A stretch of DNA of 64,000 nt from Chloroflexota bacterium (GCA_016865865.1 VGOC01000004.1:17388-81387); one strand, 5' to 3'. Shown: positions 254 to 57,032, numbered from the stretch's first letter. Made by a program: numbers and translations. Notes: a model not told the origin generated them from the letters alone.

Positions 254-676
254 CTAATCAGCTACCGCTAATGGATGAAGCTCCATGGGCCGAAATTTGT
301 AGCCATACACCAACATGCCGCGATCTTCATCGCCTTCGGAGCGCAATTTCCGGGTGACCATTTCGACAGGCATGCCAATCTCGACAGGTTGACCGCCAAT
401 GTCGGTCAATTGAGCAGTGACCATGGGGCCTTCTTCCAGCTTGACCAGGGCGACTGTGTAGGGAGCATAAGCCTCATATCCGGCGGGGGCGTTGTGCAGC
501 GTTGTGTAGGAGTACACTTCCCCGCGGCCGCTGAACTCATAGAGAGTTTTCGCCTCATCGCCGCACTCTGGGCAGACATCTCTCGGCGGGAAAATCTTTG
601 TATCACAATGCGGGCAGACCTCGCCCATCAGGGCATAACGTTGTTTCTTCAATCGCCAATGACGTGGAATTTCCAT
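254..676 (-). CDS. DUF35 OB-fold/zinc-ribbon protein (thiolase/HMG-CoA synthase scaffold type)
   Basis: 140 aa. An N-terminal 4-Cys ribbon (CPHC...CPEC) is followed by an OB-like region. It is the last gene of the thiolase/HMGCS cluster. Confidence 0.85.
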   Translation of the reverse strand: MEIPRHWRLKKQRYALMGEVCPHCDTKIFPPRDVCPECGDEAKTLYEFSGRGEVYSYTTLHNAPAGYEAYAPYTVALVKLEEGPMVTAQLTDIGGQPVEIGMPVEMVTRKLRSEGDEDRGMLVYGYKFRPMELHPLAVAD

Positions 677-775
677 TTTCGACTCCTTGAGACCTTTGGT
701 CTGATTGAATGGTAGTATAGCCGGCTAAACTATCAGGAACTATCAGATTTGGGTGTGTTTCATTTCAGTCGAAAC

Positions 776-829
776 CGTCCCGAAGGTTGTCGCAAAGGCG
801 ACACACTCTCTGTGAAAACCTTCGGGACG
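776..829. repeat. Nested intergenic hairpin
   Basis: CGTCCCGAAGGTT ... AACCTTCGGGACG (13 bp arms) enclose a small GTCGC-AAAG-GCGAC hairpin. It lies in the 320 bp gap between the thiolase and DUF35 genes. Confidence 0.6.
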
Positions 830-856
830 TTCCTCCTTCAACTCATTTCTGATAGT

Positions 857-984
857 CAGTAGATCACGAAAAAGATCGAAAGCCCGTCACTTCGACTCTG
901 CTCAGTGCAAGCCTCGGGCGACCCGAGGCCTGTGCTGAGTGAACCGAAGCAACGAGTCTTCGATCGTGATTTCGCGATGTACTG
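857..984. mobile_element. MITE-like element, family B, copy 1 (128 bp)
   Basis: Terminal inverted repeats CAGTAGATCACGAAAAAGATCG / CGATCGTGATTTCGCGATGTACTG. It is flanked by the 5 bp direct repeat ATAGT (852-856 and 985-989). The arms match the copy at 28142-28222. Confidence 0.65.
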
Positions 985-996
985 ATAGTGCCATGA

Positions 997-2154
997 TCAC
1001 TGCGCTGCCAGGACATGGGTCGCCGCCGTCGAGGCTGGACCGCCCAGGCATTGGACTAACCCCAATCGAGCTTCGGGGATTTGATTAACGCCTGCTTCGG
1101 CGCGCAACTGTTTGACAGCTTCGACGACCTGATAAACGCCAGCTGCGCCCCAGGGATTCCCGCGCCCTTTCAACCCCCCCAGGGTGGAGATCGGGATGCG
1201 ACCTTCGAGGCTGATCTGACCCTCCTTGGCCAGCACCCAGCCCCGGCCGCGCTCCGCCAATCCTGCCGCCTCCAGGGAAAGCGCCGCGTAGATCGAATAA
1301 GCATCGTACAATTCGAAGAAATCCACCTGATCAACGGTGATCCCAGCCTGATAGCAAGCCCGTTCCACAGAGAGGCGCGCCGAGCGAAAATCCAGGGGAT
1401 CGGGGCGATCGTGCAACGACAGTGTATCCGTGGCGACGCTCGATCCGGCGATTCTTACCGGAGCGTGGGGCGTATCAGGAGGCAATAGATCGAAGCGAGT
1501 CAACAGCACCGCTGCGGCGCCATCGGCATCGGGAGCGGCGTCGAACATATTCAGGGGATCGCATACCATTCCCGCTTGTTGATAATGCTCAGGCTTGATG
1601 GCTTTGCGGAACATGGCCTGAGGGTTGCCGGTGCCATTGGCATGCGCCGTGATTGGAAATCCGGCCAGCGCGTGTTGGGGCGCAGCGTACTCATAGAAAT
1701 AACGCTGCATGAGCATGGCCGCCTGTGTGAGCGGAGTCGCCCCTTGAACGGCCTCGTAATCGCTGTCGAGGCTGGTAGCGATGGCGTTATCCACCTCGGG
1801 GCCGATTTTATCGGTGAGCTTCTCGACTCCCACCACCAGGGCCACATCCACGAAGCCCGACTTGACTGCCAGGTAACCGGCCCGCAAGGCCGCGCCCCCC
1901 GAGGCGCCCGCGGCTTCGATGGCGCAGGCCTCGACGCCGCGCAGCCCGACAAAATCGGCAATCAACACGCCTAAGTGCGCCTGCCCGGAGAGGTTGGGCG
2001 CAAGCATATTGCCTACGTATAGCGCCTGGGGGATCAGGCCTACGGCGTCATCGCGGGCTGCTTCGATGGCCTGATAGGCAAGTTCACGCAAGGAAATATC
2101 CCAATGCTCGTTGACCGGGGTTTGTCCAATTCCAGCGATAACAACGTCAGTCAT
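997..2154 (-). CDS. Thiolase-fold acetyl-CoA acetyltransferase (archaeal/SCP-x-like type)
   Basis: 385 aa with the thiolase fold throughout. It sits between the HMG-CoA synthase and DUF35 genes, as in archaeal mevalonate clusters. Confidence 0.9.
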   Translation of the reverse strand: MTDVVIAGIGQTPVNEHWDISLRELAYQAIEAARDDAVGLIPQALYVGNMLAPNLSGQAHLGVLIADFVGLRGVEACAIEAAGASGGAALRAGYLAVKSGFVDVALVVGVEKLTDKIGPEVDNAIATSLDSDYEAVQGATPLTQAAMLMQRYFYEYAAPQHALAGFPITAHANGTGNPQAMFRKAIKPEHYQQAGMVCDPLNMFDAAPDADGAAAVLLTRFDLLPPDTPHAPVRIAGSSVATDTLSLHDRPDPLDFRSARLSVERACYQAGITVDQVDFFELYDAYSIYAALSLEAAGLAERGRGWVLAKEGQISLEGRIPISTLGGLKGRGNPWGAAGVYQVVEAVKQLRAEAGVNQIPEARLGLVQCLGGPASTAATHVLAAQ

Positions 2155-2186
2155 TTCGTCAATTCCAATCGTTACGTTTCACGAAT

Positions 2187-3263
2187 CTACTTCATCACTA
2201 ACTGACCGCGCATCCGTGCATACGTAGCATAATCAATCTCGGTGCGGCGAGCGATGTAGGTTTGAGTCTTCGGGGCCAGGTCGCGCCTTTCGAGCAAACG
2301 TTCAGTGACGCGGATGCCGAAAGCGTCTGATCCGGCGCCGGAACCAAAGGAAACCATCAATACGCGGTCGCCGGGCTGGGCTACATCGAGGATCGCCGTC
2401 AGGCCGATGATGGCCGCGCCGGAATAGGTGTTGCCGATCACAGGTACCAGCAGCCCAGGCGCGATCTGCTCTTTGCTGAAGCCCAATAGCTCCGCAGCCC
2501 TGCCGGGGAATTTAGTGTTGGGTTGATGAAAAACGGCGTAACGATAATCTATCGCAGCGGTACCGGTCGCATCTAAATAGGCCTGTCCCGCGGAGGTGAT
2601 ATGCTTGAAATAAGCTGGTTCACCCGTAAAACGCTGCCCGTGTTCGGGGTATTTCTGATATTCCCGCCGGAAAAAATCGGGCGTGTCGGTGACGTAAGAA
2701 AGCGAGCTTTCGATCACAGCTACCGATTCCTCCGCCGGCCCGATCAAATAGGCCGCGCCGCCCGCCGAGGCAGTATATTCCAGAGCGTCGCCGGGGCGTC
2801 CCTGGGCGGTGTCCATGCCGATGGCCAACGCATATTTCGCCATCTCCGAGCCGACGAAGCCCATCGCCGCCACCATGGCTTCGGTGCCCGCCTTGCAGGC
2901 GAACTCCCAGTCGCCGGCCTGGGTGTAGGGCGTAATACCCAACGCCTCGGCCACGATCGTGGAGGTCGGCTTGACGGCGTAGGGATGAGATTCCGAGCCT
3001 ACCCAGACAGCCCTGATCTCTGCGGGGTCGATTCTCGCCCGGGCCAGAGCGTTTCGGCCTGCCTCGATGGACATGGTGGCTGTATCTTCATCGGGGCCGG
3101 GAACGGATTTCTCCTGGACGGGTGTCCCGCCGACGCCTCCGGTCCAGATGCGGGAGATCTCCCTGGCAGGCAGGCGGTAACGGGGCACATAGGCCCCATA
3201 GCCGACGATCCCCACGGGGCGGGAGGGTTTGAGGAGTAGATTTTCTGGATTTGTTTCTGTCAT
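2187..3263 (-). CDS. Hydroxymethylglutaryl-CoA synthase (archaeal type)
   Basis: Contains [15 protein letters not shown] near the N-terminus and is condensing-enzyme-like throughout. The ATG at 3263 is preceded by AAGGAA. The open frame extends to a GTG at 3302, but that would place a strong hairpin inside the CDS. Confidence 0.9.
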
Positions 3264-3281
3264 AGAAAATTTTCCTTCGGT

Positions 3282-3322
3282 CTTCACGTTTTGACGTTTC
3301 ACGAATTACGAAAAACGTGAAG
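3282..3322 (-). other. Intercistronic 11 bp-stem hairpin between the HMG-CoA reductase and synthase genes
   Basis: CTTCACGTTTT-19 nt-AAAACGTGAAG. The loop carries the 13-mer ACGTTTCACGAAT, which is also present at 2174-2186. Confidence 0.55.
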
Positions 3323-3340
3323 CGTAAAACGTAATGTTCA

Positions 3341-4654
3341 CTATTCTTGATCCCATCGAGCCAATATCTCCTTGGCGCGATCGATGCGCACTGTTTTTTC
3401 AGCAGCCAATTGTCGAGCCAAACGAGGAACAGCATCCCCCTGGGCGCCAGCGGCGATGGCTACCTGGCGGGCATGCAGGTTCATGTGTCCACGCTGGATG
3501 CCTTCGGTTGCTAATGCCCGTAGCGCAGCCAGGTTTTGGGCTAATCCCACAGAGACGATGATCTCAGCTAATTCACTGGCTTTGGTCACCCCCATGATTT
3601 TCAGGGCGACTTGCGCAGTGGGATGAGCTTTCGTAGCGCCTCCAACGATGCCGACCGCCATGGGCATTTCCAGTGCGCCCACCAGATTCCCTTCGTCATC
3701 GCTGCCCCAGGAGCTGAGGGAGGTATAGCGTCCTGCGCGGGCGGCGTAGGCATGCGCCCCGGCCTCCACGGCGCGCCAGTCGTTTCCGGTGGCCAGGACG
3801 ACGGCGTCAACGCCGTTCATGATGCCTTTGTTGTGCGTGGCCGCCCGGTAGGGATCGGCCGCGGCGAAGGCCCAGGCGGCGATGATGCCATCGCGCACTT
3901 CTTCAGCAGAGAAATCTCCGAAAGCCAGTTCAGCAAGGGGGATCGTGCAGCGCGCCGTGGCCAGACGGCGGTCCGCCAGGTTGGAGAGAATACGAAGATG
4001 TACGCGCCCGTCCGTGAGCGCCTCGATCCGGGGCGCCAATCTCTCACAAGCCGTATTGATGGTGTTCGCGCCCATCGCGTCGCGCACATCATAGATCAGG
4101 TGTACCACCAGGAAGGCCCCGATGGGAGACTCCTCGATCAGGCGCACTTCCAGGTCACGCGGACCGCCCCCCAGGCTCATCAAGACCGGGTCGCTCTCGG
4201 CAGCTTCAGCTAACAGGTCAGCCTTCTTCTCGAGCAGGGTCAGGCGCGCCAGGTGGAAATCGGGCGAATCCAAGACTTGCATCTGGCCGATCATCTCCGG
4301 GGGGGCGGCGTGGGCGGTGAAGCCCCCTCCAGAACGGGCTAGCTTCGCCATATAAGAAGCGCCAGCCACAACGGAAGGCTCCTCGACGACCATGGGCGCA
4401 ATCACATCGCGACCGTTGATCAAAAAATTCAACCCCAACCCCAGGGGGAGGCTGTGTAACCCAATCACATTTTCGATCATGTGTTGGGCCTGCTCGAGAG
4501 TCAGTCCGCGCTGACCTTCGAGAACAGGGATATCCTCAGGGTCCAGGAACCCACGTCGAGCGAGTTCGCTGCGCCGCCCCTCGATGGGGAGATCGTAAAA
4601 TCCGGAGATGCGTGAACTTTTGGGTAAATCAGTCATATCCTCACTTTCATCCAT
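3341..4654 (-). CDS. HMG-CoA reductase, class II
   Basis: 437 aa. Carries the motifs EEPSVVAGASY, DAMGAN, NKGIMNG and GIVGGATK. The length and motifs fit bacterial class II enzymes. Confidence 0.9.
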   Translation of the reverse strand: MDESEDMTDLPKSSRISGFYDLPIEGRRSELARRGFLDPEDIPVLEGQRGLTLEQAQHMIENVIGLHSLPLGLGLNFLINGRDVIAPMVVEEPSVVAGASYMAKLARSGGGFTAHAAPPEMIGQMQVLDSPDFHLARLTLLEKKADLLAEAAESDPVLMSLGGGPRDLEVRLIEESPIGAFLVVHLIYDVRDAMGANTINTACERLAPRIEALTDGRVHLRILSNLADRRLATARCTIPLAELAFGDFSAEEVRDGIIAAWAFAAADPYRAATHNKGIMNGVDAVVLATGNDWRAVEAGAHAYAARAGRYTSLSSWGSDDEGNLVGALEMPMAVGIVGGATKAHPTAQVALKIMGVTKASELAEIIVSVGLAQNLAALRALATEGIQRGHMNLHARQVAIAAGAQGDAVPRLARQLAAEKTVRIDRAKEILARWDQE

Positions 4655-6686: not shown

Positions 6687-6759
6687 TGCCCCCAGGGAGA
6701 TTCGAACTCCCGTTTTAGCCTTGAAAGGGCTGCGTCCTAGTCCCCTAGACGATGGGGGC
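6687..6759 (-). tRNA. tRNA-Glu (anticodon UUC)
   Basis: The minus strand reads GCCCCCATCGTCTAGGGGACTAGGACGCAGCCCTTTCAAGGCTAAAACGGGAGTTCGAATCTCCCTGGGGGCA. It has a 7 bp acceptor stem, a GGGAGTTCGAATCTCCC T-arm and a CTTTCAA anticodon loop, and closely resembles the bacterial tRNA-Glu layout. CCA is not encoded. Confidence 0.85.
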
Positions 6760-7777: not shown

Positions 7778-7826
7778 GGGGGATTATATAGCGCGTTCGA
7801 AACTCCGGCAAGGACTTTTCTTCCTG

Positions 7827-8105
7827 CTAGCCCCAAGATGGGATATGCAAAGAATCGATGATCCCCACGATCACCGAAATTACGCACCCATCAGGCTGAT
7901 TGAGGGCTTGACGGGCGCCATTCCCCTCACGGTTGACGAGCACAGTATCCCCTATGCCGGCGTGAGTATTGTCCAAAGCGACGAAATCTCCCACCGCCGG
8001 GTCGCCGGGCAAGGTCAAGGGCTGCACAACCAACAGACGCCGGCGCTTATAATCCGGGTGGCTGATGGTGGTGACAACGGTGCCGACAACTTTTCCAATG
8101 GTCAT
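7827..8105 (-). CDS. BMC vertex pentamer protein (EutN/CcmL family, BMC-P), copy 4
   Basis: 92 aa. MTIGKVVGTVVTT... is an EutN/CcmL-like N-terminus. It has an ATGA overlap with the upstream BMC-P gene. Confidence 0.85.
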   Translation of the reverse strand: MTIGKVVGTVVTTISHPDYKRRRLLVVQPLTLPGDPAVGDFVALDNTHAGIGDTVLVNREGNGARQALNQPDGCVISVIVGIIDSLHIPSWG

Positions 8106-8422
8106 GTGTATTTTACGTAACCCTCTTCGAGGGTGAAATCGAATTCGCCATCTGGTTTGACCACTAATTCATCAACGATGCCGATGATAGCAAGATCAAC
8201 GGGGACGAATTTATGTTCTCGTAGAGCCAGGGCAGCCTCGCGGGAACGCACCATGACGCACAGGTCGCCAGGGCCGGCGTATACGACATCCACAGCGACC
8301 TGCAGGGGGCCGGTTGGTTGAAGGTGTTTGTCGAGCGGCTCCACCACCAGCAACTTCATCCCCTTGAGGTCGGGGTATTTGATCGTACAAATTGCAGTCC
8401 CGCGCACTCGCCCAAATAACAT
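8102..8422 (-). CDS. BMC vertex pentamer protein (EutN/CcmL family, BMC-P), copy 3, with C-terminal extension
   Basis: 106 aa. MLFGRVRGTAICTIKYPDLKGMKLLVV... matches the EutN/CcmL pattern. Confidence 0.8.
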   Translation of the reverse strand: MLFGRVRGTAICTIKYPDLKGMKLLVVEPLDKHLQPTGPLQVAVDVVYAGPGDLCVMVRSREAALALREHKFVPVDLAIIGIVDELVVKPDGEFDFTLEEGYVKYT

Positions 8423-8438
8423 CTATAAACCCTTATAA

Positions 8439-8464
8439 CCGCTAAGAACGCGAAGAGCGCAAAG
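8439..8464. repeat. 26 nt motif shared by two BMC-operon spacers (copy 1)
   Basis: CCGCTAAGAACGCGAAGAGCGCAAAG. An inverted copy lies at 12663-12687 (CCGCTAAGATACGAAGAGCGCAAAG on the other strand). Confidence 0.6.
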
Positions 8465-8550
8465 ATTTTTAGAAAATCTGCCTTGGCGATTCTGGCGTCT
8501 TTGCGGTGAATAGTCCTGTTGGTTGTGGAGATAAGCCATATAAACCACTG

Positions 8551-8919
8551 CTATGTTTTGATGTTCTGTAGGACACGGCCAATGATAGTATCCAGCAGTT
8601 TTTGATCCACCGCGTCGCCCAGGCGCGCGATGACAGCCTGGCGCACCCGTTGATGAACATCGCTGCTGCCCGATGGTTTCCTGGAGCTATCTGCTGCGCC
8701 ACTTGCCGCTGATGCGCTTGGAGATACCATCTTGGCAATATATGGGCGTTCTGGCGCGGCAGGGGGTTTATCATAGTCACGGATGAGTTGAATCCCCAGG
8801 CGCATGGCCTTGTCACGAGCCAGGTCGGTCAATACGATGCTGTCGTCAACCTCCAAGGCGGTGATCCCCTGCCGGGCTAGATCCTCGATATCTCGTTCGG
8901 TATAAAATGTCTTTGCCAT
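8551..8919 (-). CDS. BMC-associated hypothetical protein with an encapsulation-peptide-like C-terminal helix
   Basis: 122 aa. A folded-looking N-terminal segment of about 50 aa is followed by a Pro/Ala/Ser-rich linker and then the amphipathic helix DVHQRVRQAVIARLGDAVDQKLLDTIIGRVLQNI. The gene lies inside the shell-gene block. Confidence 0.6.
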   Translation of the reverse strand: MAKTFYTERDIEDLARQGITALEVDDSIVLTDLARDKAMRLGIQLIRDYDKPPAAPERPYIAKMVSPSASAASGAADSSRKPSGSSDVHQRVRQAVIARLGDAVDQKLLDTIIGRVLQNIKT

Positions 8920-8967
8920 GAGACACTCCTGATGATTTGCACGTCCCGAGTACTCGAAACAAGAGTA

Positions 8968-9606
8968 CTAGAATTCACTGGTTACGCCTTCGATGCTTTC
9001 CAAAGCCTGTATGGCAGCATCACGGGCGGTGATCGTCTCAGCCTCGGTTCCGGAAAGCCACATGCGGCCAAATCGTCCTACCGAGCTGACATGCACAATA
9101 TCTATACTGGCTTTCTTCTCTGCCTCGTTACAGGCGAAGTTGATATATGCTGCTGGGAAGCACTCCACCACCAGCAATGTCTGACCAGGGACCAGCATAC
9201 TGCCGCGCCGCCAGCGGTTGAGCAACTGCGCTTGATAAGGGTCTATGTTGGTGATCAACTGGATCGAGGCGATCTGAGGGCGGATGCGGTCCTCGATCTT
9301 CAAGCCCAGTCGTCCCAGCACGATACGACCAGATTCGAGTACAGCGGCCTGATTCGGCGAATGGATTTCGAACATGCCGAATTCACGCTCGACCACCTGC
9401 GCGCCGGGCTTGGCCTCGGTGGCTTTGACGGCGATATCTACCGTGCGGAAGACCTCGTTCCCAGGGGCCATCTCGATATACAGCGAGGCCATGCCCTCGA
9501 CCGGCAAATCGCCCTGGGTGATGGTGCCGATAAAGGCTGCGTACTGCGGCTGCATCCGGTCCAGATAACAATAACAACGTAACGAAAACTCACTTCCACT
9601 TGCCAT
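8968..9606 (-). CDS. Tandem-domain BMC shell protein (BMC-T, CcmP/CsoS1D-like)
   Basis: 212 aa, collinear with my recollection of CcmP-type proteins (YxYLDxxQxQxAxxIGT..., NIDPYQAQLLNRWRRG, ECFPAAYINFACNEAEK). Confidence 0.85.
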   Translation of the reverse strand: MASGSEFSLRCYCYLDRMQPQYAAFIGTITQGDLPVEGMASLYIEMAPGNEVFRTVDIAVKATEAKPGAQVVEREFGMFEIHSPNQAAVLESGRIVLGRLGLKIEDRIRPQIASIQLITNIDPYQAQLLNRWRRGSMLVPGQTLLVVECFPAAYINFACNEAEKKASIDIVHVSSVGRFGRMWLSGTEAETITARDAAIQALESIEGVTSEF

Positions 9607-9618
9607 AGATACCCTCGA

Positions 9619-10503
9619 TTAATTATCCATCCAACTCCGACCGTGCTCCCGGTCATGCATCGCTATCCCCAGCGGGGTCACGAATACAGGCCGCTCTGGA
9701 ACCTGAGTGGGGATACCGGTATATTCCTCGATCACCTCAGCCATGCCAGGGTAGGCGCAGGCGCCGCCAACAAGAGTCAACTGATCCACAGACACTTTGC
9801 TATTTTTCACGTGGCGAGCCGTGATACTGGCTACTTTTTCCATCACCGGCCGCAAGATGGGAAACAGACGCGCCTGCTCATTAGGGTTGGTCTTCATGGC
9901 TTCAGCCGCTTCGAAGGAGATATCATGCGCTCCGGCGACTACTAACGAAAAGTGCGTCCCTCCGGTAGGCTCGTCGGCGGTGTAGACGACCTCGCCATCT
10001 TGTAGAATCGCAATGCCTGTCGTGCCGCCGCCGACATCAACGATCGCTCCATTCCGAAGGCCCAGGAGGGCGTTCGCGGCGGTTGGCTCAGCGACCATCT
10101 GGGTGCAGCGCAATTCGGCGGCCTGGAGGACATGGGCAACCGCTCTGACTTCGACTTGAGGCACACCTGGCGGATAGCCGCTGGCGGCGTGAGTGAGTTG
10201 TCTGCCTAAACGGCGCTCAACTCGCTCCTTCATCTCTCTCAGCCGGTCTACAGCGCCGATGAAGTCAACCACCAGTCCGTCGCGCACCACCTGAGCAAAT
10301 TGATACTCACCCGCCAGAGGTTGATCAGCCTCATCGAGTACGACCAGCATCAGGTAGGCGGTGCCCAGGTCCACACCAACGTGCAGGATTCCCTCGGGAG
10401 CAGAAGCCAGCCGCGTCGGCGCAGGATCGGAAAGCCAGTGGATAACTTGCTCGGCGCGCGCTAACGTCTGGACGATCTCAGGGCGGGAAAGAGAATCCCG
10501 CAC
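9619..10503 (-). CDS. eutJ: EutJ-like actin/Hsp70-fold ATPase
   Basis: Phosphate-binding motifs VGVDLGTAY and IVDVGGGTTGIAI, plus LTLVGGACAYPG. About 290 aa, as for EutJ/PduJ-locus chaperones. Confidence 0.85.
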   Translation of the reverse strand: MRDSLSRPEIVQTLARAEQVIHWLSDPAPTRLASAPEGILHVGVDLGTAYLMLVVLDEADQPLAGEYQFAQVVRDGLVVDFIGAVDRLREMKERVERRLGRQLTHAASGYPPGVPQVEVRAVAHVLQAAELRCTQMVAEPTAANALLGLRNGAIVDVGGGTTGIAILQDGEVVYTADEPTGGTHFSLVVAGAHDISFEAAEAMKTNPNEQARLFPILRPVMEKVASITARHVKNSKVSVDQLTLVGGACAYPGMAEVIEEYTGIPTQVPERPVFVTPLGIAMHDREHGRSWMDN

Positions 10504-10505
10504 CT

Positions 10506-10850
10506 TTATTCTTCGTCTCCGTCAGATTCTTTTCCGCCGGATCGTCCGCCAAAGCCGCCTTTGGTATGCCTGGGCAGGATCATCTCGACGTTTTCGTGCG
10601 GGCGCGGGATGACATGCACCGAGACCAGCTCGCCCACGCGCTTGGCCGCAGCCGCGCCGGCGTCGGTGGCCGCTTTGACCGCGCCGACGTCGCCGCGCAC
10701 CATCACGGTAACATAGCCACCGCCGACGTATTCCGAGCCGATCAATGCCACGTTAGCCGCCTTGACCATGGCATCGGCAGCCTCGATTGCGCCGATCAGC
10801 CCTCGGGATTCGACCATACCTAGAGCGATAAATGCAGGATCTTGTGCCAT
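10506..10850 (-). CDS. BMC hexamer shell protein (BMC-H, PduA/EutM-like) with a Gly/charged C-terminal tail
   Basis: [26 protein letters not shown]...[23 protein letters not shown] is the canonical PF00936 pattern. Confidence 0.95.
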
Positions 10851-10880
10851 AACTTATCTCCTATTTAAACGAATAGATTT

Positions 10881-12350
10881 TCATGCCTTCAATACTTCTC
10901 GAACAACTTCTCTGACAATCGCCTCGATCTCGCCCGGAGAGGGGCCATAGACCGGGCCTACCGGGGCAGTGCTGGGTCTGAAAGCCTCCTCGGGAGGGCG
11001 CGAGGTTTCGTAAGCAATTCTCTTGATGTTATACAAATGATGCACGGTGACATTATCGCCAGTGATAGCGCCGCCAATGCCGCCCGGCCCCAACGTCAGC
11101 GAAGGCATGATCTTGGTGGTCATGCCGATCATCCCCAGGGTGCCCATGGTGTTGACGCCGATGCGAAAGACCGGTTTCTCCAGACCAAAGGCCATGATAG
11201 GCTTTTCGTCGGTGGCGTGAATGATCAGGCTGTGGCCGCGTCCGCCAAACTGGATCAATTCGATGCAGCGGTCACAGCCCGCTCGCCAGCCATTGACCTC
11301 ATACCAGCCCAACACCGTGGTTAATTTCTCGCGCGAAAGAGGTTCATCGCGACCGACCTTGGCAAGGCTCGCTACCAAAATTCGCGCCTGACCGGGAACG
11401 TGAATGCCTGCCAGCCCCGCAAGATATTGCGGCGACTTGCCAACTGTGGCAACGTTCATGCCTCCGTCAGGATGGAAAAGCGTCTTTCGCAGGGCGTCGG
11501 CCTGGACTTCATCAACAAAGAAAGCGCCCTCGCCCTGCATCAACTGCTTCAAACGTCCAGCGATTGGCCGATCAGCGACGACAGCTTGCTCCGTGGCGCA
11601 GATGACCGAGTGATCGAAGGCCTTGCTGCCAACGATGTATCTGGCGGCTTTCTCCAGGTCGGCACTGCGATCCACGTAGACCGGCACGTTGCCAGGTCCG
11701 ACGCCATAGGCCGGTTTGCCCTGCGAGTGAGCGACGCGCACCATCTCGGTCCCGCCCGTGGCCAGGATCAAAGCCGTGTGCCTGTGCGCCATCAATTCCT
11801 GGGTGCCTTCCAGGCTGATTTGCGTCAAACAACCAATCAAGCCCCGGGGGGCGCCGGCATCTTCGGCGGCATCGCTCATGATTTTGGCTGTGGCGTTGGA
11901 ACAATTGACTGCCGAGGGATGGGGAGCGACCACGATTCCATTGCGCGCTTTGACCGATATCAACACTTTGTTCATCGCCGTGGAAGTGGGGTTGGTGCTA
12001 GGGATCAGGGCGGCTACTACCCCCATTGGCCAGGCAACTTCAATAATGCCTCTGGCTTTGTCGCCTTTGATAATCCCCACCGTCTTGACATCTTTGATGC
12101 TCTCCCAAATATATCTGGATCCGAACTCGTTCTTCAGCTTCTTGTGTTCAGGCACGCCAAAGCCGGTCTCTTCAGCGGCCATGCGACCGAGCCGCTCAGC
12201 GCCGATGAAGGCTGCCTGCGCCATCGCCTCACAGACGCGGTCTACCTGTTGCTGAGTGGCATTGGCCCAGATTTGCTGAGCCTGGTGTGTCTGCTCAACT
12301 ATATCTCGGGCTTCTTGGATCGAACGCAGGTCTTTATCCGACTGGGTCAT
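10881..12350 (-). CDS. CoA-acylating aldehyde dehydrogenase (PduP/EutE-like) with a C-terminal encapsulation peptide
   Basis: About 489 aa of ALDH fold. The C-terminal linker PSTAPVGPVYGPSPG is followed by the amphipathic helix EIEAIVREVVREVLKA. The ATG at 12350 overlaps the upstream stop codon (ATGA). The ORF track's TTG at 12362 is less likely. Confidence 0.9.
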   Translation of the reverse strand: MTQSDKDLRSIQEARDIVEQTHQAQQIWANATQQQVDRVCEAMAQAAFIGAERLGRMAAEETGFGVPEHKKLKNEFGSRYIWESIKDVKTVGIIKGDKARGIIEVAWPMGVVAALIPSTNPTSTAMNKVLISVKARNGIVVAPHPSAVNCSNATAKIMSDAAEDAGAPRGLIGCLTQISLEGTQELMAHRHTALILATGGTEMVRVAHSQGKPAYGVGPGNVPVYVDRSADLEKAARYIVGSKAFDHSVICATEQAVVADRPIAGRLKQLMQGEGAFFVDEVQADALRKTLFHPDGGMNVATVGKSPQYLAGLAGIHVPGQARILVASLAKVGRDEPLSREKLTTVLGWYEVNGWRAGCDRCIELIQFGGRGHSLIIHATDEKPIMAFGLEKPVFRIGVNTMGTLGMIGMTTKIMPSLTLGPGGIGGAITGDNVTVHHLYNIKRIAYETSRPPEEAFRPSTAPVGPVYGPSPGEIEAIVREVVREVLKA

Positions 12351-12652
12351 GCCCCGCTCCAAGGTTCTTTCTGATACGTCACCCGGCTGCCGACCACCAT
12401 ATGGTCTATCACAGCCATGATCACCGCATCAACCGGGCTGTTCTTGGTGATATCTGTTTGGCGTCCGCCAGAACCATGGGCGGTCAGCACCAGGTCGCCA
12501 ACCCCGGCATCCAGAGTGTCAACCGCCACATAGGGTTTGCCATAGACCTGGCCAGCCTCGTCGCACTGGCGCAAGATGAGCAATTTACGGCCCTCCAGCT
12601 TTTCGTCTTTGATCGTCGAAATCGTGGTTCCGATTACTTTAGCAATATACAT
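12347..12652 (-). CDS. BMC vertex pentamer protein (EutN/CcmL family, BMC-P), copy 2
   Basis: 101 aa from the ATG at 12652 (MYIAKVIGTTISTIKDEKLEGRKLLIL...). It is closely similar by eye to the paralog immediately upstream. Confidence 0.9.
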   Translation of the reverse strand: MYIAKVIGTTISTIKDEKLEGRKLLILRQCDEAGQVYGKPYVAVDTLDAGVGDLVLTAHGSGGRQTDITKNSPVDAVIMAVIDHMVVGSRVTYQKEPWSGA

Positions 12653-12662
12653 GTTTGTATTT

Positions 12663-12687
12663 CTTTGCGCTCTTCGTATCTTAGCGG
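12663..12687. repeat. Motif shared by two BMC-operon spacers (copy 2, inverted)
   Basis: CTTTGCGCTCTTCGTATCTTAGCGG is the reverse complement of the motif at 8439-8464, apart from a 2-3 nt central difference. Confidence 0.6.
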
Positions 12688-12698
12688 TGAAAACAAAT

Positions 12699-12989
12699 CT
12701 ATGTCTTCCGAAAGACAACCTCGCCATCCACTTCTAAATGGTCTATCACAGCCATGACAACCGCGTCCACGGGACAATCTTTGGTTTTATAGGTTTGCCG
12801 CGCAGAAGAACCATGCCCGGTCAGTACGAGATCGCCGACGCCGGCATCCACCAGATCAACAGCCACATAAGATTTGCCGAGAATATCACCAGTTTGATCT
12901 GTCTGTTTGCAGATCAACAGCTTGCTGCCGCTCACCCTGGGGTTTTTTATCGTGGCGATGGTCTCGCCGATCACGCGTGCAATGAGCAT
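12699..12989 (-). CDS. BMC vertex pentamer protein (EutN/CcmL family, BMC-P), copy 1
   Basis: 96 aa from the ATG at 12989 (MLIARVIGETIATIKNPRVSGSKLLIC...), preceded by AAAGGAA. Confidence 0.9.
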   Translation of the reverse strand: MLIARVIGETIATIKNPRVSGSKLLICKQTDQTGDILGKSYVAVDLVDAGVGDLVLTGHGSSARQTYKTKDCPVDAVVMAVIDHLEVDGEVVFRKT

Positions 12990-13035
12990 AGTTCCTTTTC
13001 CGGTGGTCGTCTCAAGGACGCCCATCACGTTTTTC

Positions 13036-13965
13036 TCAATAAGCCTTCTTTGTCTGAAGAACAGGGGCTTCGAAGCCATTGGCCTCTTTTTCGCCCTGGA
13101 CGATCTTGACGCCCGCGCTGGCTCCGATGCGCGTCGCCCCAGCCTCGACCATGCTGCGGGCATCCTCATAGGATTTCACGCCGCCGGAGGCCTTGACGCC
13201 GATCTCCGGGCCGACCACGCGGCGCATCAACGCCACGTCCTCAATGGTAGCGCCGCCACCCGAGAAACCGGTGGATGTCTTGACGAAATCGGCGCCAGCT
13301 TCTTTCGACAATAAACAGGCGGTCACTTTCTCATCCTGGTCGAGCAACGAAGTTTCGATAATCACTTTGACGATTGCGCCCGCGGCATGAGCAATTCTTA
13401 CGACTTCATTTATATCTTGTGCGACCAGCTCGAAATCCCTGGCCTTCAGCGCGCCGACATTGATCACCATATCTATTTCAGCAGCGCCATCCCGAATTGC
13501 GGTTTCGGTCTCGTAGACTTTCACTGCCGTCGAAGTCGCGCCGAGCGGAAAACCGATCACCGTGCACACTTTTACCGGGCTGCCGCGCAACAATTCGGCG
13601 CACAACCTGACATGCGACGGATTGACGCACACCGAGGCAAATTCATATTTTCGCGCCTCGTAACACAACTGGGCAATCTGATCGTGAGTGGCGTCTGGTT
13701 TCAACAGGGTATGATCTATCATCCTGGCAACGCTGGGATCATCGGGGACGCCCCCCAGCGAAGAGGTCAGGCGCGCCGCGCCGGCGCTGACCACCCGCCC
13801 CACCCGGTCGAAACAAGTTCTTACGCAAATCCCCTCGGCGCATTCCTCTGTGCAATGATCGCCCTCGGGGTGTGCGTCGAGGTGTTCCTGTTCATTGAGC
13901 GCGATCAACACCTCACGGGTGATGATCTGGACTAATTGTTCTACGAACTCGACTTCTGGTGACAT
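13036..13965 (-). CDS. deoC: Deoxyribose-phosphate aldolase with an N-terminal encapsulation peptide and Cys-rich linker
   Basis: The DeoC core carries [22 protein letters not shown] and FVKTSTGF (Schiff-base Lys region). An N-terminal extension of about 80 aa starts with the amphipathic helix [23 protein letters not shown]. The ATG at 13965 lies 5 nt after the rpiB stop. Confidence 0.9.
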
Positions 13966-13969
13966 ATCT

Positions 13970-14566
13970 CTATTTCTCGATCGCCATGATCTTATCCACA
14001 CGGCGGGCGTGACGACCACCGCCAAAATCCGTGCTCAACCAGGTATCCACGATCTGTTTCGCCAGGTTGGGGCCGATCAAGCCTGCGCCCAGGGTGAGCA
14101 CATTGGCGTCGTTATGTTCTCTGCTGTTCACGGCGGTGGCGTGGTCGTAGCACAACGCTGCCCGGACGCCGCGCACTTTGTTGGCCGCCATACAACTGCC
14201 GATGCCGGCGCCATCCACGATGATGCCTCGCCAGGCCTCGCCATTGCTGACCAGCTTCGCCACCGCGTAGGCGAAATCAGGGTAATCAACCGGCTCTTGG
14301 CTAAAAGTACCGCAATCTTCGATCCGAAAACCCTGATCGTTCAGGTGCGCTTTCAAAGTCTCTTTCAACGAGAAACCGCCATGATCTGCGCCGAGGGCGA
14401 CTATTCGACCGCTGCTCTTCTTTGCTTCGGACTGAGTTTGTGGAGGCGACGGACGGGGGTCGAGGCTGGCTGCCACGGACGAAGGGGGGGGACTGTTCCC
14501 CAGCATCGTCTGGCGGACTACCCGCCGTACGATCTCATCCAGCGCAGCTTCGGTGGGATTGCTCAT
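13970..14566 (-). CDS. rpiB: RpiB/LacA/LacB-family sugar-phosphate isomerase with an N-terminal encapsulation peptide
   Basis: The core carries [31 protein letters not shown] and [15 protein letters not shown]. The N-terminal helix [17 protein letters not shown] is followed by a Pro/Ser linker. Confidence 0.9.
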
Positions 14567-14571
14567 ACCAT

Positions 14572-15363
14572 TCAGGCACGCGCCTCCGTCTCGATAGGCA
14601 GGGGCAGCCTTCGAAAAGCAAACGCATCCGGCCGCGCCTGCAAGCGAAGGTCTGCGTAGAAGCGGAAACGGTCGCCGCGCAACTCCGAGTCCACATACTC
14701 GATCACCTGGCCCGAAGCCAGGCGTGTTTCTCGATGGAAGACCAGCACAACGGCTGGCTGATCCAACTCCAACAGGCGGGCGACTTCTGCGGTAGCCAGA
14801 CCAGCCTCGATGACCTGCTCGGCATGATTGGGACTCTTGTTATATTTCCTGGTAAGCACTTCGTAGAGCGAGGCCGTCGAAAAGTCGTATTGCAAGATGC
14901 CCGGACAGAGATCATGCGGCAGATACGAACGTTCGATAGCAGTCGGTTCGCCATCCATCATCCGCACCCGGTACAGGAAAACCACCTCAGCCCCGAGTTG
15001 GATTTGCAGACGCCGCGCCAGAAAAGGATCCGCGCTGATCAGCTTGGCCTCGATCACCCGGCTGGAGACCTGCTTGCCATGAAGCCGCATCTCATGAGTG
15101 AACCCGTAGAGATATTGAGCGGTCTTATCGAAGCGCTCGCCAGAGACGAACGTGCCTACGCCCGGAATGGATTCCAACACACCATCCCTGGCCAGTTCGC
15201 TGAGCGCTCGTCGAACCGTGTTGCGGCCAACCGAATAGATCTGGCAAAGTTCGTGCTCCGAGGGCAGGCGGTCATTGGCTCTGAGCTGACCCTCGTTGAT
15301 CTGCTTGAGGATCGCTGCGGCAACAACCTGATAGAGGGGTTTGGCTTGCTTTTCTTCGACCAT
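14572..15363 (-). CDS. GntR/HutC-family transcriptional regulator (wHTH plus UTRA effector domain)
   Basis: LPSEHELCQIYSVGRNTVRRALSELARDGVL is the HTH, followed by a UTRA-like C-terminus. It is the first gene of the BMC operon. The ATG at 15363 is preferred. An alternative in-frame ATG at 15396 lies inside the inserted repeat element. Confidence 0.85.
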   Translation of the reverse strand: MVEEKQAKPLYQVVAAAILKQINEGQLRANDRLPSEHELCQIYSVGRNTVRRALSELARDGVLESIPGVGTFVSGERFDKTAQYLYGFTHEMRLHGKQVSSRVIEAKLISADPFLARRLQIQLGAEVVFLYRVRMMDGEPTAIERSYLPHDLCPGILQYDFSTASLYEVLTRKYNKSPNHAEQVIEAGLATAEVARLLELDQPAVVLVFHRETRLASGQVIEYVDSELRGDRFRFYADLRLQARPDAFAFRRLPLPIETEARA

Positions 15364-15380
15364 GACTTCTTTCGGTTCTT

Positions 15381-15491
15381 GTAACTGCTCAGCCATCAAA
15401 CGGATTTACCCGAAAAAAGGGTGTGCGCAGGGGGCGTAGCCCCCTGCGCACACCCTTTTTTCGGGAATTTCTCCGATTGGCTGAGTAGTAC
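15381..15491. mobile_element. MITE-like nested palindrome, family A, copy A2 (111 bp)
   Basis: Termini are GTAACTGCTCAGCC...GGCTGAGTAGTAC. The perfect core palindrome is CCCGAAAAAAGGGTGTGCGCAGGGGGCG-TA-GCCCCCTGCGCACACCCTTTTTTCGGG. It is flanked by the 8 bp direct repeat CGGTTCTT (15373-15380 and 15492-15499). Confidence 0.75.
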
Positions 15492-15541
15492 CGGTTCTTA
15501 ATATACTACATGTACCAACTTGTTCCAACAGGTGTGTGATT

Positions 15542-15571
15542 ATTATAGCATTTTTCGACAACTGGAGTCAA
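15542..15571 (-). promoter_or_regulatory. Sigma70-type promoter of the gntR/BMC operon
   Basis: The minus strand reads TTGACT-18 nt-TATAAT with an extended TGc (TGCTATAAT). It lies about 60 nt downstream of the der stop and upstream of gntR. Confidence 0.6.
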
Positions 15572-20336: not shown

Positions 20337-20447
20337 GTAACTGCTCAGCCATCGAACGGATTAGCCCGAAAAAAGGGTGTGCGAAGGGGGCGCAGCCCCC
20401 TTCGCACACCCTTTTTCGGGAACTTCCCCGTTTGGCTGAGTAGTTAC
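20337..20447. mobile_element. MITE-like nested palindrome, family A, copy A3 (111 bp)
   Basis: It has the same termini and architecture as A2. It is flanked by the 8 bp direct repeat CTAAGATC (20329-20336 and 20448-20455). Confidence 0.75.
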
Positions 20448-38841: not shown

Positions 38842-39258
38842 ATGGCTGGTCCTGAATACGATCAAAATTCCCTAGACGAGCTATGCCGCCAATTCGATCT
38901 AATCCTGGTTATCGCCTACGGCTCGCAAATAACTGGTCACGCCAGTTCACATAGTGACACAGACATCGGTATATTGCAACGATCAGGAGTGCTCCCCATA
39001 AAGCAATATCTAGACCTCTGCTATCACTTGTCCCAAATTATTCAGCCCAGCAACATTGACTTGGTAGATTTTCGCCGCGTTCCAGGCTTGCTCAGACACC
39101 TGGCCTGTGAAAAGGGTAAGGTGCTGTTCGAGAGTGCGCCAGGGATTTACGCCAACTTCCGCTTGTACGCCTGGAATTTATACCAGGATGAATGTACTGC
39201 TATTCGCCGGCATGATCGTGAAGCGATCCAAACTGCGTTAAGGAGTTTTTCCCCATGA
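38842..39258 (+). CDS. mntA: MntA-type nucleotidyltransferase antitoxin
   Basis: Carries the minimal nucleotidyltransferase motif YGSQITGHASSHSDTDIGIL. It overlaps the downstream HEPN gene by 4 bp. Confidence 0.75.
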   Translation: MAGPEYDQNSLDELCRQFDLILVIAYGSQITGHASSHSDTDIGILQRSGVLPIKQYLDLCYHLSQIIQPSNIDLVDFRRVPGLLRHLACEKGKVLFESAPGIYANFRLYAWNLYQDECTAIRRHDREAIQTALRSFSP

Positions 39259-39719
39259 TGAGTCCCGCAGATCAAGACGTAATTCGCCGCAAACTTGACC
39301 GCATTATTAAGTGCTTGCAGCGTATTCGAGAAGCCCAGCGTAAAACCCTGGACGATTACCTTTCCGATCAGGATTTGCAATTCATCATGGAGCGCCAATT
39401 GGAGCTAATCATCGGCGCTGCAGTAGATGCCAACGTGCATATTCTGGCTCAATCCGGTTTTGGAACCCCTGCAGACGCCTATACATCTTTTTTTGAACTT
39501 GCCCGTCATACCGAGGCAATTCCTATGGATCTGGCATCTCAGATGGCTCCGGCCACTGGCTTGCGCAACCGCCTGGCGCACGATTATGAAGAGATAGATC
39601 ATAAGCTTGTCCATAGAGGGCTTGGTGAGGCGCTGGCGTTGTTTCCGAAATATATCGAAGCCGTCGAAAAGTATCTATCCAGTTTGCCCGCTCAAGAATC
39701 GTTCTTATCCCAGGAGTAA
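39255..39719 (+). CDS. hepT: HepT-type HEPN/DUF86 RNase toxin
   Basis: Carries the Rx4H motif in [14 protein letters not shown] near the C-terminus. The size is typical of DUF86. Confidence 0.8.
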
Positions 39720-47656: not shown

Positions 47657-47768
47657 GTAACTACTCAGCCATACGGAGAAATTCCCGAAAAAAGGGTGTG
47701 AGCAGGGGGCGTAGCCCCCTGCTCACACCCTTTTTTCGGGTAAATCCGTTCGATGGCTGAGCTGTTAC
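47657..47768. mobile_element. MITE-like nested palindrome, family A, copy A4 (112 bp, inverted relative to A2/A3)
   Basis: GTAACTACTCAGCC...core...GGCTGAGCTGTTAC. No clean 8 bp flanking duplication is visible for this copy. Confidence 0.65.
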
Positions 47769-53171: not shown

Positions 53172-53474
53172 CTACGAACGCGGTTTAGCGATATGCCAGA
53201 TCACTTTTCCGATCAGGTCGTGCTTTGGGATCGGACCAAACTGGGAGCTATCCAGGCTGTGAGGATGCGCGCCAGTGACATATACCCCCTTGCCGTCCGC
53301 CTCGTTATGAGCAAACTTCTTGATCATCGTGCCATACTGTTCGTGCTGGAAGACGAGCACATCCCCCGGCTTGAGGGCATTCAAGAAAAGAGGACTCGTC
53401 GCAAGGACTACGAAATCCCCTTCTTCGAACTCAGGTGAGAGGCTGTCGCCCGTCACTCTCATGATTTTGAACAT
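53172..53474 (-). CDS. sodX: S26-family protease, likely NiSOD maturation protease SodX
   Basis: 100 aa with the minimal signal-peptidase-like core (VTGDSLSPEF...GDVLVF...MIKKF...). It lies in the same cluster as sodN. Confidence 0.7.
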   Translation of the reverse strand: MFKIMRVTGDSLSPEFEEGDFVVLATSPLFLNALKPGDVLVFQHEQYGTMIKKFAHNEADGKGVYVTGAHPHSLDSSQFGPIPKHDLIGKVIWHIAKPRS

Positions 53475-56543: not shown

Positions 56544-57032
56544 TTACAGCTCAGGATAAACCATAACCAGCGCTGGAGCGTAGGGCGCCTTGGCCTTTTT
56601 GGTCTTGATGCCTTTGATGGCCCAGAAAATCTCGGCGAATTGATTGATGGCTTCCACGAAATCCAGCCCGGCCTGGCGGTCGGCGGTCTGGCGGGCTTTG
56701 GAACCCAATTGCATGATCTTCTTGACCAGCTCATTGAGTTCTGGATATTTTTCCACATGCTCGGGTTTGATAAAGTCACCCCAAATCACACGCACTTCGT
56801 GTTTGGCCTGCTCGGCATGATCTTCTTTGACGGCTATGTAGCGGGACATGCTATTTTGGTAAGACGCGCCTTCGCCTTCCAGAGCCGCCATCAGATCCAT
56901 CATGCGCACAACGGTCAAGGCGCTGATCTGGGCGGCGATGGGATCATAGATGCCGCAAGGAATATCGCAGTGGGCCTTTGCTTGCTCGAATCCCAATTTT
57001 TCATCCAACATTTTCAGGAATTTGTACATCAT
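56544..57032 (-). CDS. sodN: Nickel superoxide dismutase precursor
   Basis: The Ni-hook HCDIPCGIYDP follows a 20 aa leader (MMYKFLKMLDEKLGFEQAKA). The ATG at 57032 is preceded by GGAGG. The longer ORF-track start runs into a palindromic repeat. Confidence 0.9.
   Translation of the reverse strand: MMYKFLKMLDEKLGFEQAKAHCDIPCGIYDPIAAQISALTVVRMMDLMAALEGEGASYQNSMSRYIAVKEDHAEQAKHEVRVIWGDFIKPEHVEKYPELNELVKKIMQLGSKARQTADRQAGLDFVEAINQFAEIFWAIKGIKTKKAKAPYAPALVMVYPEL

Follow-up and report, generated by a model that had tools for sequence, protein, structure and literature searches.

Gene content and organization of the locus

The DNA analyzed here is a stretch of 64,000 nucleotides from a Chloroflexota bacterium (GCA_016865865.1, VGOC01000004.1:17388-81387), referred to in its full length as the window, and the system in question is a bacterial microcompartment (BMC) operon on its minus strand. 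The block from 7827 to 15571 comprises a promoter and 12 co-oriented genes in 7.7 kb, with open reading frames (ORFs) filling positions 7827-15399. In transcription order, the genes encode a GntR/UTRA regulator, an RpiB-like protein, a DeoC-type deoxyribose-5-phosphate aldolase (DERA), two pentameric shell proteins (BMC-P), an acylating aldehyde dehydrogenase (AldDH), a hexameric shell protein (BMC-H), EutJ, a stacking pseudohexameric shell protein (BMC-Tdp), a 122-amino-acid (aa) protein (hyp122) and two further BMC-P. An initial reading made from the sequence without database searches (the sequence-only reading) had given the same 12 genes in this place and order, and ORF calls and matches to Pfam, NCBIfam and the PDB agree with it, all 12 gene products being backed by hidden Markov model (HMM) or PDB sequence matches. 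The features of the block, from the promoter to the last gene, are:

15542-15571, minus strand: promoter, TTGACTCC-N-TGCTATAAT with an extended -10 (sigma-70-like, TTGACT-18-(TG)TATAAT, 11/12 matches)
15501-15530, minus strand: probable GntR operator, tandem 10-bp units TGTTGGAACA / AGTTGGTACA / TGTAGTATAT, the first 11 nt past the -10 box
15381-15492, minus strand: palindromic 112-bp element in the operon leader, like a miniature inverted-repeat transposable element (MITE) or a repetitive extragenic palindrome (REP), with terminal inverted repeats GGTA(A)CTACTCAGCCA ... TGGCTGAGCAGTTAC
14572-15363, minus strand: GntR/HutC-family regulator, winged helix-turn-helix plus UTRA domain (Pfam GntR 4e-21, UTRA 1.3e-39; NCBIfam)
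13970-14566, minus strand: RpiB-family protein, 198 aa (LacAB_rpiB, PF02502, 1.2e-55; TIGR01120, 168 bits, cut-off 139)
13036-13965, minus strand: DERA, 309 aa, the signature enzyme (Pfam DeoC 1.9e-18; TIGR00126)
12699-12989, minus strand: BMC-P 1, pentamer of the shell vertex, 96 aa (EutN_CcmL); an alternative JGI start at 13025 gives 108 aa
12347-12652, minus strand: BMC-P 2, 101 aa (EutN_CcmL), tandem duplicate of BMC-P 1
10881-12350, minus strand: CoA-acylating acetaldehyde dehydrogenase (AldDH), 489 aa (Pfam Aldedh, PF00171, 3e-19)
10506-10850, minus strand: BMC-H hexamer, 114 aa, with a PRPH motif and a Gly-rich acidic tail (Pfam BMC), the sole BMC-H in the window
9619-10503, minus strand: EutJ-family ATPase of actin/Hsp70 fold, 294 aa (fold match in Pfam; PRK15080, 351 bits, cut-off 182)
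8968-9606, minus strand: BMC-Tdp, stacking pseudohexamer of the CcmP/CsoS1D type, 212 aa (PDB sequence matches)
8551-8919, minus strand: hyp122, resembling EutQ's N-terminal region, probable shell-cargo linker (EutQ-like profile matches; AlphaFold2 (AF2) model)
8102-8422, minus strand: BMC-P 3, 106 aa, with a C-terminal extension (EutN_CcmL)
7827-8105, minus strand: BMC-P 4, 92 aa, last gene of the conserved block (EutN_CcmL)

With the likeliest start codons, the gene-to-gene spacing in this order is 5, 4, 46, 46, -4, 30, 2, 12, 48, 128 and -4 nt; the start codons of DeoC (13965), BMC-P 1 (12989), BMC-P 2 (12652) and AldDH (12350) fall inside their maximal ORFs. The tight junctions described in the sequence-only reading (ATGA overlaps or gaps of 5-50 nt) thus hold for most gene pairs but not for the widest, the 128 nt between hyp122 and BMC-P 3. 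Neither a conserved nor a structured feature was found in this gap, the length of which differs among relatives, or in the region past BMC-P 4.

The flanks in the window are housekeeping genes, with the der GTPase upstream and lepB and a tRNA downstream. A promoter-like site of its own (7783-7811, minus strand, TTGCCG-17-TATAAT, 10/12 matches) lies ahead of lepB, 15 nt past the stop codon of the last BMC-P, and no terminator-like hairpin was seen between the BMC operon and lepB. Rfam searches at the gathering threshold yielded a single tRNA in the window (6687-6759, minus strand, 58 bits), downstream of lepB and a 97-aa zinc-ribbon-like ORF, with no match in the operon leader and no riboswitch detected.

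Published and related loci

The block clusters BMC-H, BMC-T and BMC-P genes with enzyme genes, and at least one BMC-H or BMC-T together with a BMC-P among enzymes is what marks a BMC locus in general. The sequence-only reading had placed it in the sugar phosphate utilizing (SPU) class, which Sutter et al. (2021) divided into seven subtypes, and both gene set and gene order do match that class, in particular subtype SPU6 (Sutter 2021; Dwyer 2024), barring the presence of four BMC-P. The SPU6 entry in the supplement of Sutter 2021 covers 44 loci, from Chloroflexi only, with an AldDH carrying a C-terminal encapsulation peptide, pfam01791 and pfam02502 enzymes and sometimes EutJ. The SPU6 operon of Chloroflexi bacterium GWB2_54_36 described by Dwyer, Sutter and Kerfeld (2024) consists of GntR/UTRA, RPI, DERA, AldDH, one BMC-H, one BMC-Tdp and three BMC-P. 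The view that the class is defined only bioinformatically is outdated by the same study, in which purified SPU6 DERA, minus its N-terminal extension of ~70 aa, cleaved 2-deoxyribose-5-phosphate (dR5P) with an active site of D165, K229 and K258, and SPU6 RPI, with Asp for Cys66, had negligible ribose-5-phosphate (R5P) isomerase activity and bound DERA in a complex.

A pattern scan with one genome per species found 124 loci, of which 80 were kept, and was accompanied by a tblastn survey; 67 loci span DERA to the last BMC-P. All 80 come from Anaerolineales/Chloroflexota metagenome-assembled genomes (MAGs), the best at 74-95% protein identity, which is the host group of SPU6, and their MAG names gave no match in the Sutter 2021 supplements. 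Across the 67 species-level genomes the order RpiB-DERA-P(1-2)-AldDH-H-EutJ-Tdp-hyp122-P-P is nearly invariant, and a GntR orthologue lies upstream in 43. Four BMC-P, as in the window and unlike the triplet of the SPU6 exemplar, are present in 35 of these loci and three in the other 32, and EutJ, found in 8 of the 44 catalogued SPU6 loci, is present in the window and in 62 of the 67 relatives. The complete chromosome CP070764.1 carries the same 12 genes, GntR included, between unrelated neighbors, and these different flanks fix the unit as GntR through BMC-P 4. In addition, the identical sequence is present in several metagenome samples in public assemblies. Among more distant SPU6-like loci, four (L046, L062, L063 and L075) gave split or duplicated AldDH/DERA matches, and in L046 the opposite strand carries one more, divergent DERA-like gene, which fits a remark in the catalogue on duplicate or split sets.

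The enzymes and their targeting extensions

The aldolase scores 284 bits against the deoC equivalog TIGR00126 (cut-off 117) and matches solved DERAs at E=2e-88 in a PDB sequence search. Its residues D165, K229 and K258 align with E. coli D102, K167 and K201 and have the same numbering as in the characterized SPU6 enzyme. As in other SPU loci, this is a deoC-type DERA (PF01791) with the catalytic Asp/Lys/Lys and an N-terminal extension that is absent from free DERAs, here 77 aa ahead of the part aligning to solved DERAs. A search with the N-terminal 110 aa yielded fragmentary gene calls of at most 190 aa, which were used for alignment, and in an AF2 model built with an N-terminal alignment the extension is predicted to form a helix (5-31) and a beta-hairpin (38-43/46-51) ahead of the barrel. 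The hairpin bears four cysteines, C38, C42, C47 and C51 (C-x3-C-x4-C-x3-C; aa 38-51, window 13813-13854), which are conserved in 68, 63, 63 and 69 of 69 loci, respectively. C42 and C47 are lost jointly in six loci, as would be expected if the cysteines pair across the strands, C42 with C47 (inner) and C38 with C51 (outer). These cysteines go unmentioned in the main text of Dwyer 2024, and the hairpin may account for the insolubility reported for full-length DERA.

The RpiB-like protein begins with an amphipathic, encapsulation-peptide-like helix (aa 4-20) followed by a 30-aa Pro/Ser linker. The name RpiB given to it in the sequence-only reading stands as far as family membership is concerned (PF02502, TIGR01120), but probably not for an isomerase role, as Asp118 replaces the catalytic Cys, aligning with E. 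coli Cys66; His151, the counterpart of His99, is kept. A PF02502 protein with Cys66 changed to Asp and an N-terminal encapsulation peptide is a defining component of SPU loci. Since the same change is found in the inactive published SPU6 RPI, the protein is most likely a DERA-binding packaging partner rather than an isomerase.

An acylating AldDH is likewise part of the SPU gene set. The window protein reaches 552 bits against NCBIfam EutH_ACDH, slightly below the cut-off of 620, matches 3k9d (3e-138) and 5j78 (2e-137) in the PDB, and keeps the catalytic Cys251 within ICATEQ. It lacks an N-terminal extension and has a 42-aa C-terminal tail (448-489), beyond the part aligned to solved AldDHs, that closes with an amphipathic helix of high hydrophobic moment, EIEAIVREVVREVLKA, which we read as an encapsulation peptide. 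This position is that of SPU6, the AldDH encapsulation peptide being N-terminal in other SPU types. Amphipathic helices are thus found on the RpiB-like protein, DERA and AldDH, and also on hyp122.

Shell proteins, EutJ and comparison with other microcompartments

The HMM check of the shell genes proposed in the sequence-only reading gave one match to PF00936 (1.2e-28) and four to PF03319 (EutN_CcmL; 3e-24, 4e-26 (4.3e-26), 1.5e-22 and 2.5e-20). BMC-P 1 and 2 share 61% identity, against 34-41% with BMC-P 3 and 4, which makes the "fourth" pentamer a tandem duplicate within the usual triplet. The shell set therefore consists of one BMC-H, one BMC-Tdp and four BMC-P of three kinds, one of them doubled, and neither a further shell paralogue outside the operon nor PduS was found in the whole 64 kb. 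For comparison, SPU6 is described with one BMC-H, one BMC-Tdp and three BMC-P, and lacks the pair of BMC-Ts and PduS.

The BMC-Tdp falls below the Pfam BMC threshold (E=0.0045), and its earlier description as a CcmP-like BMC-T is borne out by end-to-end alignments with CcmP of the beta-carboxysome (4ht5, 1.4e-61), Haliangium ochraceum HO-5816 (3e-56) and CsoS1D of the alpha-carboxysome (8e-47). Its E73/R74 align with CcmP E69/R70, a pair that we take to be the CcmP pore gate, and the protein presumably forms a gated pore through which large phosphorylated metabolites or cofactors could pass. Unlike CcmP itself, it scores 250 bits where the NCBIfam CcmP equivalog cut-off is 340, and its context is catabolic rather than carboxysomal.

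The operon resembles the Eut system of Salmonella and E. coli, in which an acylating AldDH also traps acetaldehyde within a BMC-H/BMC-P shell, and the window EutJ and BMC-H are 43% and 69% identical to E. coli EutJ and to EutM, respectively. It differs from Eut in having DERA rather than ethanolamine ammonia-lyase as signature enzyme, a BMC-Tdp, no EutD or EutG, and an AldDH of the EutH_ACDH/AdhE-like branch with a C-terminal instead of an N-terminal encapsulation peptide. According to Sutter 2021, the nearest relatives of the SPU6 AldDH and BMC-Tdp lie in EUT3, which has EutABC and an EutL-type BMC-Tsp in place of DERA/RPI, and a single BMC-P.

The 122-aa protein as a probable shell-cargo linker

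Hyp122 has no Pfam match, its PDB sequence search returned chance matches only, and its ~1000 homologues are all unnamed and from Chloroflexota. When 24 homologues are aligned, four parts can be told apart: a conserved block of 48 aa at the N-terminus, the motif PPAAPERPYIAK..SPSA, a variable linker and, at the C-terminus, another conserved block. The AF2 model places a beta-alpha-beta-beta-alpha-beta domain at aa 4-47 (pLDDT ~85), followed by disorder and two amphipathic helices (85-100 and 106-121). The first ~100 positions of the NCBIfam EutQ model are matched by 10 of the 24 members (best 5e-4) and TIGR02536 by 8, and hhalign aligns the family with E. coli EutQ collinearly over residues 2-99 (E=9.5e-4, probability 22%). 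Profile matches in a library of 1.8 billion proteins brought in multi-module relatives of hyp122, with matches of their own to the N-terminus of EutQ (5.8e-7) and to TIGR02536 (6e-11). No significant match to the AF2 model came out of a Foldseek search of the PDB (best E=0.2); with no structure solved for the N-terminal part of EutQ, the homology could not be backed by a comparison of folds.

Hyp122 stops after the part aligned to EutQ 2-99 and, unlike EutQ, has no C-terminal cupin (PF06249)/acetate kinase domain; as it resembles the N-terminal linker region only, it was not filed as EutQ. A ~130-aa, weakly EutQ-like protein without a Pfam domain is part of the SPU6 description, and the presence of hyp122 in all fetched relatives follows from the search design. 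Its EutQ-likeness was considered as a new inference and dropped, as the Sutter 2021 supplement already has it, and the functional reading alone is an update. In a 2025 study, EutQ(1-99) was found experimentally to be the shell-cargo bridge of the Eut BMC, with H1/H2 binding EutM/EutL, a flexible linker, and H3/H4 binding the encapsulation peptides of EutC and EutE. By comparison with this region, hyp122 would be a cupin-less, stand-alone version of the EutQ bridge.

Length variants of the family were also observed. In hyp122 and its homologues (P0027, P0043, P0048, P0088 and P0093), the linker motif PERPYI(A/T)K..SPSA occurs once in forms of ~120-130 aa and twice in forms of ~150-160 aa, which suggests a repeated short linear binding motif. 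Five proteins of 223-255 aa (P0130, P0136, P0167, P0171 and P0181) have three tandem hyp122 N-terminal modules and form a bridge to TIGR02536 "eut_hyp" and the N-termini of EutQ and EutT.

Promoter, probable operator and an inserted element in the leader

The promoter postulated in the sequence-only reading is upheld by its 11/12 consensus match and by a phylogenetic footprint in relatives, and position 15571, the upper limit given there, belongs to the -35 hexamer. Among 41 related loci with an extractable upstream region, TTGAC-N17-21-TATAAT (or TAAAAT) lies upstream of the GntR gene in 21, with two to three tandem 10-bp units 9-12 nt downstream of the -10 box, an arrangement that the window shares (15571-15501). 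Their consensus, TGTWGGWAYA, fits the GT-N-AC pattern that is usual in operators of the GntR family, and the units are the predicted binding sites of the GntR protein. The footprint supports autoregulated repression at the transcription start, and a plausible effector, sensed by the UTRA domain, would be dR5P or a sugar phosphate related to it.

Unlike the SPU6 exemplar, the window has a MITE-like insertion in the leader. The element is bounded by terminal inverted repeats, GTAACTACTCAGCCA ... TGGCTGAGCAGTTAC, with GTAACTRCTCAGCCA common to the copies, and its center is a perfect GC-rich 27-bp stem with A6/T6 (hairpin 15409-15465). Two more copies are found at 20337-20447 and 47657-47768; all three are intergenic, between minus-strand genes, and base changes from copy to copy are compensated in both arms. 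The element is missing at the leader site in all related loci compared. The maximal GntR ORF reaches 15399, and comparison with relatives places the likely start at ATG 15363 (MVEEKQAKPLYQ) rather than at 15399 or 15396, as the 12 extra codons come from the inserted element. This copy also provides the first codons of the GntR gene call in the database, and one related locus (L008) has a related element ahead of its promoter.

A folding energy of -86.5 kcal/mol is predicted for the leader RNA (z = -9.7 against shuffles), and the stem plus U6 looks like an intrinsic terminator whichever strand is transcribed. The large hairpin upstream of GntR was at first considered as a possible attenuator of the operon itself; this explanation was discarded because relatives lack the hairpin at that position, which marks it as an inserted repeat element. 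The element may bring der transcripts to an end, attenuate the BMC operon, or do both. It is conceivable, if somewhat improbable, that the operon is structurally intact while its transcription in this population is attenuated or silenced by the element acting as an intrinsic terminator. The element does lie downstream of promoter and operator and upstream of the GntR start, where, in relatives, only 29-70 nt separate the -10 box from the GntR N-terminus and no hairpin is present; the strength of the fold and the two additional intergenic copies in the window point the same way. All 12 ORFs, however, are intact and highly similar to those of relatives, which argues for continued selection, and hence expression, and against a dead operon, and the same sequence recurs in several metagenome samples. 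The hairpin may also serve mainly to terminate the upstream der transcript, read-through could be enough for the operon, and another promoter may exist.

Assignment of the locus and proposed mechanism

We read the locus, with a probability of roughly 0.8, as encoding a metabolosome of the SPU6 type in an Anaerolineales (Chloroflexota) bacterium, most likely for the breakdown of DNA-derived dR5P. With the GWB2_54_36 operon and the SPU6 catalogue it shares GntR/UTRA, RPI, DERA and AldDH, one BMC-H and one BMC-Tdp, the ~130-aa EutQ-like protein without a Pfam domain, the C-terminal AldDH encapsulation peptide, N-terminal extensions on DERA (~70 aa) and RPI, the Cys-to-Asp change in RPI, the D165/K229/K258 triad of DERA, the lack of PduS and of a phosphotransacylase (PTAC), and a Chloroflexi/Anaerolineae host. 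The chemistry put forward in the sequence-only reading, in which dR5P is split into glyceraldehyde-3-phosphate and acetaldehyde and the acetaldehyde is converted to acetyl-CoA, draws support from the SPU6 match, the catalytic residues and the activity of the homologue.

In the proposed mechanism, a HutC/UTRA-type GntR repressor would occupy the TGTWGGWAYA repeats that follow closely downstream of the -10 box until a sugar phosphate releases it. A single BMC-H, a gated BMC-Tdp and BMC-P of three kinds, one present as a duplicate pair, would make up the shell. Amphipathic encapsulation peptides are predicted to package DERA and the RpiB-like protein (both N-terminal) and AldDH (C-terminal helix), with the RpiB-like protein as DERA-binding packaging partner and hyp122 as a putative bridge that would attach its N-terminal domain to the shell and its C-terminal helices to the encapsulation peptides. 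Inside the shell, DERA would cleave dR5P, yielding glyceraldehyde-3-phosphate together with acetaldehyde, as shown for the SPU6 homologue, the catalytic residues of which are conserved here, and AldDH, judging from its family and conserved Cys, would convert acetaldehyde to acetyl-CoA and NADH. As no PTAC, alcohol dehydrogenase or PduS is encoded, both CoA/acetyl-CoA and NAD+/NADH have to be exchanged with the cytosol, the large pore of BMC-Tdp being the presumed route, and the literature proposes such cofactor exchange through the Tdp pore for SPU types without PTAC.

The operon had been called complete in the sequence-only reading, which applies in the SPU6 sense but not to PTAC, alcohol dehydrogenase and PduS, as these are encoded neither in the operon nor in the window. 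In the 64-kb window there is no PTAC (PduL or Pta), alcohol dehydrogenase, PduS, acetate kinase, nucleoside phosphorylase, phosphopentomutase or deoxyribokinase, and tblastn searches with E. coli DeoA/B/D, EutD, EutG, EutP, EutQ, EutL, EutS and EutK yielded no match in it. The deoxynucleoside kinase encoded at 60366-61037 belongs to salvage and is not linked to the operon.

Several points weigh against the assignment. Genes that make dR5P (deoA/B/D, deoK) or recycle cofactors were not found in the 64 kb, which makes the feeding and exit steps presumptive, and the locus is known here from sequence alone. Shells are not reported for any SPU BMC in the SPU literature examined, and the homologue assayed for dR5P cleavage had been truncated to remove its N-terminal extension. 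The relation of hyp122 to EutQ is weak (hhalign probability 22%), its linker role being drawn by analogy only, and the MITE hairpin, with its 27-bp stem and U6, may block normal expression in this population.

A more elaborate view of packaging is speculative, and we regard it as unlikely as a whole. According to this view, packaging may need two undescribed elements: the four-Cys hairpin of DERA (C38-x3-C42-x4-C47-x3-C51) as a redox or metal switch that would control aggregation or encapsulation, through cross-strand disulfides or an intersubunit metal/Fe-S site, and the stand-alone EutQ-N-like protein with its PERPYIxK..SPSA linker as a dedicated shell-cargo bridge, with the organelle here also throttled by a MITE-borne terminator.

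Finally, it is quite improbable that the physiological substrate is another sugar phosphate, with the Asp-variant RpiB-like protein as a true isomerase feeding or draining the aldolase, or that the acetaldehyde has a different origin, for instance an ethanolamine "EUT module" elsewhere in the genome: the RpiB/LacAB family does have a broad substrate range and the window protein scores above the rpiB equivalog cut-off and keeps His151, the strict co-occurrence of RpiB and DERA, fused in SPU3, is left without a catalytic explanation, dR5P-supplying genes are missing from the window and EUT-module satellites occur at 7 of 44 SPU6 loci (Sutter 2021), but the window DERA has its equivalog score, its match to solved DERAs and all catalytic residues, SPU6 DERA cleaves dR5P in vitro, SPU6 RPI has negligible R5P isomerase activity, and EutA, B, C and L were not found in the 64 kb (eutL and extra shell homologues by tblastn, the others among the annotated flanking genes).

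Other features of the window

Outside the operon and its immediate flanks, a mevalonate cluster on the minus strand (254-4654) encodes a DUF35/OB-fold protein, a thiolase, an HMG-CoA-synthase-like protein and HMG-CoA reductase, in an archaeal-style thiolase/HMGCS/DUF35 arrangement, here in the genome of a Chloroflexota bacterium. A HepT-like and a Pol-beta (MNT) nucleotidyltransferase form a toxin-antitoxin module at ~38842-39719, adjoining methylmalonyl-CoA mutase. A nickel superoxide dismutase (Sod_Ni, 56544-57032) and a small S24/S26-like peptidase (~53172-53474), possibly its maturation protease, flank two ABC permease genes.

Significance of the locus

To our knowledge, no native SPU organelle has been isolated so far. 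The locus is one more compact SPU6 operon, from a freshwater Anaerolineales population, and its value is confirmatory and overturns nothing. The features of the catalogue hold, including the Cys-to-Asp change in RPI, the C-terminal AldDH encapsulation peptide and the small EutQ-like protein. To these the locus adds details that can be tested, namely the four-pentamer variant shared by about half of the relatives, the Cys hairpin in the targeting extension of DERA, and the conserved GntR promoter/operator. SPU microcompartments are among the most widespread BMC types, and their presumed role is the recycling of deoxyribose from DNA in anoxic sediments and waters.

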